Shown one piece after another: positions 25,147 to 29,366 of a stretch of 49,983 bases of DNA (positions within the stretch are counted from its first letter, which is position 1; each line of letters starts with the position of its first letter). Origin of the DNA: Oscillospiraceae bacterium (lineage in GTDB: Bacteria > Bacillota > Clostridia > Oscillospirales > CAG-272); NCBI GenBank assembly GCA_015065175.1, contig SVQV01000003.1, forward strand, positions 1 through 49,983, given 5' to 3'. The notes beneath the pieces were generated by a model. The model did no database searches. It was not told the DNA's origin and saw only the letters and a list, made by a program, of their open reading frames with translations. The position numbers were made by a program, and so were the translations under genes.

Positions 25147-25286
25147 TAGTCGCCTCCGATATATTGTGTTTTATATCCGAACGGCTATTACGGCTTAAGT
25201 TCTTATATAGCACAATTTATCAATTTAACCCGCCTTATCCGTATGGATAAGTACCAAAAAAATTGAATTTAGGAGGATTGAAACAG

Positions 25287-26255
25287 ATGTTTGAGAAGCC
25301 GAATATTACAGCTACCGTATTGAGTGAAGACGGCAGTGAGGGCGAGTTCGTTGTAGAACCTCTTGAAAGAGGCTATGGCATCACACTCGGTAACTCTTTG
25401 CGCAGAATTTTGCTCAGTTCACTTCCGGGTTACGCCGCTACAAGCATTAAAATTGACGGCGTAAAGCACGAGATCTCTACAGTTGAGGGCGTAACAGAAG
25501 ACGTTCCCGAAATTGTTTTGAATGTAAAGGGAATTATCGCTAAGCTTCATGTTGACACACCCAAGAGCGTTATTATAGACGTAACAGGTCCTCATGATGT
25601 AAAGGCGGGAGATATCGTTCCCGATGCTGACATTGAGATTTTGAACCCCGATCATCATATCGCTACCTTGGCTGAAGGCTCAAGATTCTTTATGGAGCTT
25701 ACCTTCGACTGCGGAAGAGGATATGTATCTCAGGATAAGAATAAGCAGAATTTTGTTTCCGCTCTCGGTGCAAATGTTAGCGCGCCTATTGGTACTATTT
25801 TCACAGACTCTATATTCACACCTGTTTACAAGGTTGAATACAAGGTAGAGAATACACGTGTCGGCAACATTACCGACTACGATAAGCTCACAATAAGAGT
25901 TCTGACAAACGGTACGATATCCGCGCAGGAAGCAATCTCACATGGCGCCAAGATTCTCAACGAGCATCTCAACCTCTTTGTTAATATGTCTGATGACGCT
26001 AAGAACGCTGTCATTATGATAGAACGCAAGGAAGCGCAGAAGGGAAAAGTTCTTGAGATGACCATTGAGGAACTTGACTTGTCTGTTCGTAGCTTTAACT
26101 GCTTGAAGAGAGCAGGAATAGACAATGTTGAGGATTTGATCAATCATACCGAAGAGGATATGATTAAGGTTAGAAACCTTGGAAGAAAATCGCTTGAAGA
26201 AGTAATTCAGAAGCTTCACTTCTTGGGACTTGAGCTTAAGAAAGTCGAAGAATGA
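25287..26255 (+). CDS. rpoA: RNA polymerase alpha subunit
   Basis: [43 protein letters not shown]; AGGAGG RBS before ATG 25287. Confidence 0.98.
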
Positions 26256-26281
26256 TTTAAGTAAAATAGGAGGTAAAGGAA

Positions 26282-26656
26282 ATGCCCGGAACCAGAAAGC
26301 TCGGCAGAACAAGCGCTCACAGAAAATCAATGTTGAGAGGCATGGTTACTTATTTGTTCGAAAACGGACAGATCGAGACAACTCTCACAAGAGCAAAAGA
26401 GCTTCGTGCTGTAGCAGAAGATATGATTACCCTCGCAAAGAAGAACACACTTTCTTCTTACCGTGAGGCTCTTGGATATATCACTAAGGAAGATGTAGCT
26501 AAAAAGCTCTTCGACCAGATCGCTCCTTCTTATGAGAAGAGAGCAGGTGGTTACACCCAGATCTATAAGTTAGGTCCCCGTCGCGGTGACGCAGCTGAAA
26601 TGGCACTCATTAAGCTCGTAAGCGCAGACGAAAAAGAGGAGACCGAAGCAAAATAA
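26282..26656 (+). CDS. rplQ: 50S ribosomal protein L17
   Basis: [22 protein letters not shown]. Confidence 0.98.
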
Positions 26657-27066: not shown

Positions 27067-27384
27067 TTATAGGGCTTTGATATATGCATCCAAGATAGCA
27101 ACGGCACCTGCGCGTTGCTTTGGTGTTAATGTGTCTAATTTAGCGGATATTTCATTGTTGAAATGAGGTACTGCGGAAATTTCATCCTTTAATAAAGAGT
27201 CTGCTGACACGCCGAGCGCTTCGACAATCTGAATGAAGACCGTTAAGCTCGGGAGCTTTTGTCCTCTCTCTATTTCTCCGATGTAATAGAAGCCGACATT
27301 GGCAAGCTCTGCCAACTGCTCTTGCGTGAGTTTCTTTTTCAAACGAGCTTCTCTTATTCTCGTTCCTAATGTAGATTGATTCAT
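27067..27384 (-). CDS. XRE-family HTH regulator
   Basis: LGTRIREAR..LTQEQLAE..IERG..PSL; GGAGG RBS before ATG 27384. Confidence 0.9.
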   Translation of the reverse strand: MNQSTLGTRIREARLKKKLTQEQLAELANVGFYYIGEIERGQKLPSLTVFIQIVEALGVSADSLLKDEISAVPHFNNEISAKLDTLTPKQRAGAVAILDAYIKAL

Positions 27385-27698
27385 TATACATCCTCCAAGC
27401 TGATAGCCAATAATTTGTACCAATGTTCTACACCAATATTATAGGGGATTTGTATAAAAATATGAATTGGCTATATAGCAAACATTTGACCGAATAGCCA
27501 ATATAGAAACGCAAAAAATTGGATTTTATACAATGTGTGGGGAATCTATATAAGAGAAAACAGTAAATTTTTGTTTGAAATTTTACATCGCATTTTCGTC
27601 GAGAGCCTTTCTACGTTCAAGGATGACATAAAAAGAAAGGTACGAGGATAAAAATGGTGGAGGAGAGGTTGCCGTAAACTTTTATATGAAAAAATATA

Positions 27699-27727
27699 TT
27701 GAAATAAGAAAAGTAATGTGTTATAAT
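27699..27727 (+). promoter_or_regulatory. sigma70/A promoter with extended -10, upstream of the repeat array and the M20 gene
   Basis: TTGAAA-17 bp-TATAAT, preceded by TG. Confidence 0.75.
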
Positions 27728-28109
27728 TATCGCAGAAAGTCTTGCAAGCAAGCCTTTGGGGCTTCGCCCCTATGCGTGCGTTCGCACGCCTGCGAAATTG
27801 AAACAGTTCGCAAAAATGTCCTTGCAAGCAAACATTTTTGCTCGTGTTATAATGGACGCAGAAAGTCTTGTAAGCAAGCCTTTGGGGCTTCGCCCCTATG
27901 CGTGCGTTCGCACGCCTGCGAAATTGAAGCAGTTCGCAAAAATGTCCTTGCAAGCAAACATTTTTGCTCGTGTTATAATGGACGCAGAAAGTCTTGTAAG
28001 CAAGCCTTTGGGGGCTTCGCCCCTATGCGTGCGTTCCGCACGCCTACGAAATTGAAACAGTTCGCAAAAATGTCCTTGCGAGCAAACATTTTTACTTGTA
28101 TTATAATTA
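27718..28109 (+). repeat. Tandem array of three 126-128 bp hairpin-rich units, each bounded by GT(G/A)TTATAAT
   Basis: Units start CGCAGAAAG at 27731, 27857 and 27983; near-identical; no variable spacers. Confidence 0.95.
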
Positions 28110-28124
28110 AAAGGAGACAACGTT

Positions 28125-29366
28125 ATGGAGATCTTGAAAAAAATTGAGGAGCGCAAGGAAGAGCTTTTTGAAATTCTTTGCGAGCTTATAAGAATTGATT
28201 CTCAGAGCTTTGGAAATACGGGAGAGAGTCGGGAGATTGCCGACTTTATCGCCAAGCAATTTGAGGATATGGGATATGAGGCGGATGTGTATTCACCTCT
28301 GTCTATCGAGGGTATGAAAGAGCATCCCGATTATTGGGGACTGCACGAGCTTGAAAACAGATTTAACGTATCTGCCGTTATTCCGGGCAAGGATCACACA
28401 AGACGGCTCATGCTTGCCGCGCACAGTGACACTGTGGCTATTGGTGACAGGAGAAACTGGACTGTAGATCCGTTCGGCGGCATAATAAAGGACGGCAAGA
28501 TTTGGGGCAGGGGCGCTTGCGATGACAAATACGGAATTGCGACGGCGCTGTTTCTGTTCAGGCTTTTCAAGGACGAGGGAATAGAATTTCCTTGCGACAT
28601 TGTATTTACCGCATACTGCAATGAAGAATACGGCGGAAGCCATGGAGCACTTGCGGCATGCCTTAAATATCCCTGCGATGACATAATAAATATGGACTGT
28701 AAAAACTTCGAAATATGGATATGCGCTGTCGGCGGTGAAGAAATGAGAGCGCATATATCGGCGCAGGACTCGGTCGATGACTGCGGAGTTATGCTTGACG
28801 GACTTGCCGTTCTGAAGGATGAATTTGCGTCCTTCAGGGAAAAGCGCTATGCAGAGCTGAAAGCGCATCCCGAGTATGCCGATACGGTAATTCCCGACAC
28901 GTCGGTAAGATTTATGGAGATGAAGGCGGGAAATGCTGGCGCGGATCTTGGCAAAGCGTCGGTTGAAGTATGTTACTATGCGGCGGCAAGCAGAGAAAAA
29001 ATCGAAGAAGAATTCACCGATATGGCGAAGCGCATAGACGATCGCCTTCAGCCTATGGGATTAAAGTTTGACCGTTATGAAAAGGAAACGAGATTTTTCC
29101 ATTTCGGTAAATCAGAAAAAGAAAACCCCGTTGTTGAAAAGCTGATAGCATCAGCAAAAGAAGCAAGCGGCAGAGTTCTCACACCTTGCGGCTCGTGTCA
29201 GTCCGACCTGTCTATCTTCTTGAAATACGGTAGCCCGAGAGCGATATCCTTCGGTATAGGCAGAGATTTCGGCGCATACGGCGGCGCTCATCAGGCGGAT
29301 GAGCATATCGACTGCGACAGATTGCTTGAATTCGCAAAAATTATGGGTAAGTTCCTCTCAGAATGA
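28125..29366 (+). CDS. M20/M25/M40 metallopeptidase (ArgE/DapE-like)
   Basis: AHSDTV, GRGACDDK, NEEYGG, AHQADE; AGGAG RBS. Confidence 0.9.
   Translation: MEILKKIEERKEELFEILCELIRIDSQSFGNTGESREIADFIAKQFEDMGYEADVYSPLSIEGMKEHPDYWGLHELENRFNVSAVIPGKDHTRRLMLAAHSDTVAIGDRRNWTVDPFGGIIKDGKIWGRGACDDKYGIATALFLFRLFKDEGIEFPCDIVFTAYCNEEYGGSHGALAACLKYPCDDIINMDCKNFEIWICAVGGEEMRAHISAQDSVDDCGVMLDGLAVLKDEFASFREKRYAELKAHPEYADTVIPDTSVRFMEMKAGNAGADLGKASVEVCYYAAASREKIEEEFTDMAKRIDDRLQPMGLKFDRYEKETRFFHFGKSEKENPVVEKLIASAKEASGRVLTPCGSCQSDLSIFLKYGSPRAISFGIGRDFGAYGGAHQADEHIDCDRLLEFAKIMGKFLSE

Follow-up and report, generated by a model that had tools for sequence, protein, structure and literature searches.

A hairpin-rich, non-autonomous element of about 125 bp that probably homes to promoter −10 boxes in Clostridia, present as a triple array upstream of an M20 peptidase gene

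The stretch of DNA analysed here, referred to as the window, covers 49,983 nucleotides of contig SVQV01000003.1 from an Oscillospiraceae bacterium (GCA_015065175.1), and contains three near-identical, hairpin-rich units set head to tail (126, 126 and 128 nt; window 27717-28107) between a promoter and the gene of an M20-family peptidase. We consider it very probable that this array consists of three copies of a non-autonomous mobile element of about 125 bp that homes to the −10 boxes of promoters. A preliminary description of the window had proposed a non-autonomous mobile element with the −10 hexamer as its target, and both proposals are borne out by a dispersed family without open reading frames (ORFs), present in 0 to 26 copies per genome in the genus, by copies up to 99.1% identical at unrelated loci, by a promoter found both empty and filled, and by an exact TATAAT at the left junction of 84 of 97 loci, where flanks typical of real promoters are far commoner than at control TATAAT hexamers.

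The array lies in a 700-nt divergent intergenic region between a gene for an XRE-type helix-turn-helix (HTH) protein and the M20 gene, and its parts, with covariance model (CM) scores where available, are the following:

27699..27704 (+): host −35 hexamer TTGAAA, outside the repeat, with a 17-nt spacer to TATAAT (promoter scan)
27717..27727 (+): host extended −10 TGTGTTATAAT, with TATAAT at 27722-27727, the putative insertion target (promoter scan)
27728..27853 (+): unit 1, 126 nt, delimited as an inserted segment, i.e., starting right behind the host TATAAT and having its own TATAAT last; CM score 106.3 bits, given for the model frame 27717-27842
27736-27757, 27758-27770, 27774-27789, 27791-27812 and 27810-27841 (+): hairpins 1 to 5 of unit 1
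27854..27979 (+): unit 2, 126 nt, last bases GTGTTATAAT; CM score 104.7 bits, unit alignment
27980..28107 (+): unit 3, 128 nt, with two 1-nt insertions and A for G in stem 5, last bases TGTATTATAAT; CM score 88.8 bits, unit alignment
28111..28127 (+): translation signals of the downstream gene, the Shine-Dalgarno sequence (SD) AAGGAG (28111-28116) and the ATG (28125), with only 17 nt from the last −10 to the ATG
28125..29366 (+): M20-family peptidase gene, 413 aa, behind the array (Pfam Peptidase_M20, E 3.3e-26; ORF list)
27067..27423 (−): divergent upstream gene, XRE-type HTH protein, 118 aa (Pfam HTH_3, E 1.3e-14)

The promoter ahead of the array, described earlier as a consensus one, scored 11/12 matches in the promoter scan (TTGAAA at 27699, N17, TATAAT starting at 27722 and ending at 27727, TG in front). 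The three units and the AAGGAG-ATG of the M20 gene behind them were likewise recovered by Tandem Repeats Finder (period 126, 3.1 copies, 95% matches, 27718-28107), by the unit alignment (units pairwise 95-96% alike, mean column identity 91%) and by the Pfam assignment, and the junction copies, TTATAATTA at the outer junctions (27721-27729 and 28101-28109, the last TATAAT of the array being 28102-28107) and GTGTTATAAT at the internal ones (27844 and 27970), all lie where they had been placed. The two extra bases of unit 3, said to fall at a stem edge and in a loop, are indeed a G bordering stem 2 and a C within the stem 3 loop. The five stems ascribed to each unit are present as hairpins, but stems 4 and 5 have three bases in common (GCA, 27810-27812) and therefore cannot both form in full. 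Deletion of the array, which had been held to restore a compact promoter with its ribosome-binding site, restores the promoter as a sequence but not obviously as a working unit, since the −10 then ends at 28107 and a start about 7 nt downstream falls inside the SD. A single unit folds with −44.8 kcal/mol as compared to −33.2 ± 3.4 in 200 shuffles (z −3.4), and the opposite strand folds about equally well (z −3.3). An in-frame ORF of 153 aa runs through the array (window 27686-28147, +) because the unit measures 126 nt, i.e., 42 codons; since units elsewhere measure 123-125 nt, it was rejected as coding and is regarded as a by-product and not a gene.

The unit is not restricted to this locus. 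BLAST and a covariance model, the latter built from the four non-window copies (36 pairs), identified four further full-length copies on three other contigs of the source genome, more diverged (73-79% identical to the window units) and including one tandem pair, so that the model accounts for seven sense copies at four loci, with scores of 88.8-152.5 bits. All four loci share one layout, in which a locus-specific −35, a 17-18 nt spacer, TRTGnTATAAT, the unit and a second TGTGATATA(A/C)T follow one another, and the other copies thus abut TATAAT as the window units do; to the right of the unit, 17-50 nt of unrelated sequence separate it from a gene on the same strand with its SD and ATG. The genes concerned (M20 peptidase, MgsA-like protein, lipoprotein, others) are mutually unrelated. 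Beyond the source genome, matches occurred in 13/36 further genomes from the genus (with counts from 0 to 26 each), in 4/24 other families of the order and in 25 of 150 other genomes drawn evenly from the class, belonging to 16/107 other genera. An exact-pattern scan returned at least 116 stretches in species-representative genomes, and nearly all those listed are titled as Clostridia metagenome-assembled genomes (MAGs) from the gut of human, ruminant, rabbit or mouse. The plasmid, phage and IMG/VR collections gave no match. The element does not correspond to a described Rfam family either, the best match being at chance level (18.9 bits vs. a threshold of 80) and the copies in loci L004, L005, L006 and L013 giving no match at gathering thresholds. 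One copy was located on a contig titled Chryseobacterium sp. MAG (L122, a Bacteroidota bin), for which mis-binning seems more likely than transfer.

The association with promoters was evaluated on a junction set obtained from 160 aligned matches by removing 11 duplicate loci, matches outside 100-150 nt and 14 matches without the right-end motif, which left 109 units in 99 loci that are not phylogenetically independent. The exact hexamer TATAAT was better kept on the left (84/97 loci) than on the right (48/97). At the left sites of the element a TG was present at −15/−14 in 72/95 cases, as compared to 34/329 control TATAAT hexamers taken from the same loci, a −35 with at least 4/6 matches in 60/95 (controls 70/329) and one with at least 5/6 matches in 37/95 (controls 22/329), while of the 60 loci having a −35, 42 had a 17-nt spacer. 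On the other side, an SD and a start codon on the same strand lay within 400 nt downstream in 83/97 loci (median distance 61 nt), and the orientation of the element is tied to that of the gene. The richest genome, G018, with 26 matches, many of them at contig ends, allows the two junctions to be told apart: the five bases ahead of the right hexamer were TGTGA at 13/14 loci, whereas the left prefix was locus-specific (TGTGA at 3/14, TG at 13/14), and across the family the bases before the left TATAAT differ by locus. The right extended −10 is therefore the element's own and the left one the host's; moreover, the sequence behind the right TATAAT is unrelated from locus to locus, which sets the right boundary at the last T of the hexamer. 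As the element itself ends in TATAAT, a 6-nt target duplication and an element-borne motif are indistinguishable. The only locus that looks, from its sequence, like a host hexamer duplicated around a dimer is the tandem pair C94:52333-52591 of genome G000 (L005 1490-1758, minus strand), with TATACT as both outer hexamers and TATAAT at the inner junction.

Further variation was noted around the junctions. The six bases behind the left TATAAT vary among the otherwise 93-99% identical copies of loci L040-L054 in G018 (ATACGC, GTATGC, ATGCAC, GTGTGC, others), almost only by transitions and with the alternation of purine and pyrimidine kept, and no column stood out by mutual information as a pairing partner for this 6-mer. 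A model of spread through an RNA copy, which predicts a constant 6-mer behind the right TATAAT, was rejected, the right flanks being unrelated instead. Some subfamilies carry extra right-hand modules: one has CCTGGTARAAT followed by about 30 nt and TTTTATAAT before host DNA, and another has TCATGGTAGAAT and then a further conserved hairpin ending in GAGAGAACATTGAA; such modules were seen in the right flanks of L066, L071, L089, L095 and L134 and in those of L068, L069, L118 and L139. At L080 (1990-2075) and L098 (minus and plus strand), a lone hairpin-5 module followed by TGCTATATG and without hairpins 1-4 occurs in repeated, AT-rich DNA close to tRNA genes; it may represent the module in a different setting or an ancestral fragment of a promoter.

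Insertion is documented by an orthologous promoter found in both states. In a DNA search with the filled locus of G033, the left- and right-flank matches in G004 and G100 overlapped by 12 nt, these empty sites reading TTGAAA-N17-TATAAT-AAGGTATCG, while the filled sites of G033 and one other MAG hold 123 nt plus a second ATGGTATAAT exactly behind the TATAAT, with both flanks alignable. In addition, copies at unrelated G018 loci were 98-99% identical and four copies in G220 had near-equal scores, which indicates recent movement of the family. The mgsA locus of G004 was considered as another clean empty site and rejected, its upstream DNA not being alignable. A glycine riboswitch aptamer (L013 1175-1264, minus strand, 64 bits) belongs to the divergent gene that lies upstream of the filled site of G033.

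The body of the element consists of five local hairpins; the only inverted repeats found are internal, the termini not being complementary, so that terminal inverted repeats (TIRs) are missing. Compensatory changes affected stems 1-4 among the copies of the source genome, where stem 5 was invariant. For the family, 97 matches from 80 public loci were placed in an alignment (A5): 91.6% of the cells were paired, as compared to 73.6% in shuffles and 34-50% when the partners were slid, both sides had changed in 33/36 pairs, and 556 double-change cells were observed where 148 were expected. The sequence of stems 1-4 is therefore free to vary as long as pairing is kept, while in hairpin 5 and the right −10 it is the sequence that is conserved. 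Hairpins 1 and 5 of G000 and G018 are direct-repeat versions of each other, sharing CTTGCAAGCAA and a CGCARAAA lead-in, whereas in other subfamilies hairpin 1 varies freely and hairpin 5 is fixed. Conservation of the sequence starts at the purine of CAGAAAG, 2 nt ahead of hairpin 1.

Several observations weigh against a homing mobile element and are considered here and in the two following paragraphs. The empty allele that had been envisaged upstream of M20 orthologs was not found in comparable form, M20 relatives being 41-44% identical in the genus and at most 58% in metagenome contigs. Alignment A5 was fitted to the model and so favours structure, and the loci were fished with a hairpin-5 pattern, which makes the invariance of this hairpin partly a matter of construction, although it holds also among matches found by the model alone. 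The structure is kept across the whole class, more than most selfish repeats show, and this may point to an RNA function. G-U pairs exceed A-C pairs on the gene-sense strand (121 vs. 69), a weak strand signal and a modest vote for that strand which does not separate RNA from single-stranded DNA. This excess, together with the strong compensatory variation in four hairpins, the TGnTATAAT at the start of every unit and a conservation beginning at the predicted +1, would also suit a small-RNA (sRNA) gene with its own extended −10, the array being a multi-copy locus of trans-acting sRNAs, like tandem LhrC or csRNA, and dispersal being secondary. We regard this explanation as highly improbable, as no convincing terminator was found (the scan gave only a single weak terminator-like site, located in unit 3, and hairpin 5 has its T-run within the stem), no conserved single-stranded, seed-like stretch is seen except UUGA in the hairpin 4 loop, copies invariably have a promoter of the host on one side and a gene of the same strand on the other, and presence or absence at an orthologous promoter fits insertion and not a conserved gene. 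The 5' leader position, the conserved architecture and the sequence conservation of hairpin 5 could, on the other hand, recall a conserved cis-regulatory leader of the downstream genes, riboswitch-like or protein-binding. With downstream genes as unrelated as those listed above, an mgsA ortholog in G004 (protein 94% identical) whose different upstream region lacks the element, an empty site in two genomes and no Rfam match, such a leader is scarcely credible.

The search for a mobilising enzyme was mostly conducted on MAGs, so that 'not found' does not mean absent. Y1_Tnp matches were present in 11/41 genomes of the genus, but were not found in G000, G018 and G036, nor in three of five further high-copy genomes (G249, G210 and G179; 96-98% complete), these six being MAGs of 91-98% completeness, and were marginal in the other two; four of five other carrier genomes had a Y1 match. 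The IS200-like loci of the genus and of the carriers have ends unrelated to the element (at most 13.8 bits with its model), TnpB (PF07282) was found in 0/5 high-copy genomes, with no search aimed at IscB, and the IS110 transposase (PF01548) in 0/5 genomes. No longer element with the same right end was seen in three genomes searched with the right-end pattern or in the 80 fetched loci, where every right-end match lies in a short copy; the one internal partial match, at L070, is accounted for by a stretch of masked N. Y1_Tnp-like ORFs of an atypical kind (246-274 aa) occur at L240 and two other places of G069 and at L254 1462-2202 (G220), the latter with a C-terminal HTH and a degenerate HUH motif, and are not linked to the element; the 246-aa Y1-like protein with HTH of G220 was rejected as mobiliser, not being found in five carrier genomes. 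The mobiliser may also be a recombinase acting on a TGnTATAAT core.

The failure to find a transposase candidate would be expected if the element spread without an enzyme, by microhomology-mediated template switching or short-homology recombination between TGnTATAAT direct repeats, with copy number changed by unequal exchange, promoter targeting then being a mere consequence of the microhomology being a −10 box. Host site and element end do share up to 10 nt, ATGGTATAAT, in the empty/filled pair, which also counts against homing, short-homology events are seen in the family (mini-units at L045 and L114, described below), and the window units look like a local duplication. Most left sites of G018, however, share only TG and TATAAT with the element end, the full prefix being limited to the 3/14 loci mentioned above, and the rate and precision implied by 26 matches in this genome, with dispersed copies 98-99% alike, are unusual for a microhomology of 6-9 nt. 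The right boundary, moreover, is identical and exact at every insertion, and enzyme-free spread is in our opinion distinctly unlikely.

Tandem arrays were a minority, with 90 single, 8 double and 1 triple arrangement, the latter being that of the window, in the 99 loci (partial units at contig ends uncounted). The preliminary description had the element re-inserting at the site it regenerates. This is supported by two arrays of G018, in which adjacent units are most closely related to units of other loci, an indication of insertion beside a resident copy. The units of the window are each other's closest relatives. Being 95-96% alike vs. 73-79% to other loci, they have a simpler history in local duplication between the 11-bp junction repeats, and the window array likely arose in this way; another array of G018 has mutually nearest units as well, which indicates local duplication. 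Mini-units at L045 1126-1206 (G018) and in the right flank of L114 have hairpin 1 fused to hairpin 5 through the common CTTGC..GCAA motif of about 11 nt; they are internal deletions by short-homology exchange, and such exchange occurs in the family. The rpoA and rplQ genes lie near the upstream side of the array region (window 25263-26656).

The number of units in the window was also compared with public sequencing runs, 24 of which contain part of the window stretch, none being listed as RNA. In four of them the contigs enter the array from both flanks and no short-read contig bridges it, which is a further point against three mobile copies and is consistent with the triple array being an artefact, assembled from only one or two real copies. 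The depth of the unit-2-specific stretch (1.3-3.0) as compared to the flanks (4.7-6.5) points in the same direction, as do the left-flank-joined contigs of runs X1 and X2, which read G, the base of unit 2, at window 27803 where unit 1 has A, as expected of a two-unit allele; judged by this base, they could represent a hybrid of units 1 and 2, i.e., a shorter array allele in those samples. An artefact is nonetheless unlikely, since the three units differ by substitutions and indels, a contig links the end of a unit, without any difference, to the distinctive unit 3, and tandem arrays occur in 9/99 loci from many independent assemblies; it would in any case touch the number of units and not the element.

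In the reading of a mobile element that homes to −10 boxes, integration has a single orientation and takes place immediately 3' of the −10 hexamer, or inside it, at sigma-A type promoters that usually have a TGnTATAAT and a proper −35. As the element carries its own extended −10 at the right end, TATAAT stands on both sides after insertion and the gene keeps a −10 at the original distance. The better conserved left −10 and the missing terminator point to read-through of the element from the host promoter, and it is from this geometry that we infer host transcription through it, with a predicted start 7 nt behind the left −10, at the purine conserved in CAGAAAG; the downstream gene would then have the element as a structured 5' leader, the element's own −10 providing a second, often dispensable, start. 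In the window, the last −10 lies 17 nt before the ATG and a start from it would fall inside the SD, so that translatable M20 mRNA would come from the upstream −10 boxes and probably carries one to three units. Hairpins at the 5' terminus are known to protect mRNAs in Bacillus, and by analogy protection of the 5' end would be one reason why the structure is kept. Arrays may arise when a new copy lands on the −10 beside a resident one or when units are duplicated through unequal exchange at the 11-bp junction repeats, the latter being the likelier route in the window. As to the chemistry of integration, our guess is based on the layout, with a motif on the left, the same motif on the right and subterminal hairpins, which is like that of the single-strand 'peel-and-paste' HUH transposons. 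It is also conceivable, if rather unlikely, that the family is one lineage of a wider, hitherto undescribed promoter-homing class, integrating where RNA polymerase holds the −10 single-stranded, with an enzyme of the host or of another origin in place of a recognisable transposase, and carrying a portable five-hairpin RNA leader, acting for instance as a stabiliser of the 5' end, that makes the insertion neutral or useful.

Known systems were compared with the element as far as they are covered by the consulted parts of the sources cited. The closest in geometry are the palindrome-associated transposable elements (PATEs) of the insertion sequence (IS) family IS200/IS605, for which transposon-adjacent and transposon-encoded motifs (TAM/TEM) and mobilisation in trans have been described (PMC10055086). 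Like these, the element is short and non-coding, lacks TIRs, inserts by a short motif which it also carries at its own right end, and has subterminal hairpins, in this genus as direct-repeat versions of one motif after CGCARAAA (PMC10055086). A difference is that no cognate Y1 TnpA or TnpB was found for it in high-copy genomes, nor a full-length IS with the same ends, and its target is a 6-nt promoter hexamer identical to its own end; the geometry fits the TAM/TEM layout, but membership in the IS200/IS605 PATEs is not supported. The absence of TIRs separates it from the classical miniature transposable elements with inverted repeats (MITEs) mobilised by DDE transposases, and the failure to find a DEDD transposase (0/5 genomes) from derivatives of the IS110/IS1111 bridge-RNA elements.

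Among the dispersed repeats of Firmicutes, bcr1 of the Bacillus cereus group is a transcribed, non-autonomous repeat of about 155 bp with 5-bp flanking direct repeats and no known transposase (PMC3184786). It resembles the element in a distribution not conserved between strains and in an RNA structure kept by compensatory changes, and differs in its 5-bp direct repeats and in not being reported, in the part of the source used here, on −10 boxes or with a replacement −10 (PMC3184786). No sequence relation to bcr1 turned up, none of the searches having touched it. Small dispersed repeats that bring promoters upstream of genes include REP2 (CREN) of Neisseria, Correia, MITEAba12, BrickBuilt and QMITE1 (PMC3184786; PMC10969869). 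REP2 also lacks TIRs and has two internal stem-loops, but supplies the whole promoter, ribosome-binding site and ATG, whereas Correia has TIRs and a TA target (PMC3184786; PMC10969869); none of the REP2, Correia and promoter-bearing MITEs is said, in the parts of these sources considered, to insert into a pre-existing promoter at its −10 hexamer, and the string 'TATAAT' has 0 occurrences in the 2024 MITE review (PMC10969869).

In pneumococcal BOX elements the modules are ordered as boxA-boxB(n)-boxC, the internal ones being repeated in tandem. They are, like the present element, hairpin-rich intergenic repeats of a Gram-positive bacterium whose mobilising enzyme is unknown, but they follow this different module logic, and no −10 targeting is reported for them in the sections consulted (PMC3049150). 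The putative mobile promoters of the work on 'promoter reuse in prokaryotes' are also near-identical, promoter-bearing intergenic sequences before unrelated genes, though known from a similarity census that, in the portion considered, comes without defined junctions, structure or target site (PMC3575422). Within the literature searched, with subscription journals and ISfinder outside it, no element was described as landing on a −10 hexamer and replacing it.

Small dispersed repeats that bring promoters are thus already known, and the precise landing on a working −10 hexamer is the aspect without a counterpart in the literature searched. It raises the mechanistic question of the enzyme recognising TGnTATAAT, for whose study we now have a covariance model and a pair of empty and filled sites. 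The element breaks short-read assemblies and can mislead the prediction of promoters and sRNAs. The family is common, as roughly a sixth of the genomes sampled from the class carry it, and it occurs in bacteria from the gut of people and livestock; as a consequence 5' leaders are inflated and rewired in many uncultured Clostridia. If the promoter-homing class were real, the promoters of Clostridia would be routinely rewired by a mobile module made of a promoter and a leader.

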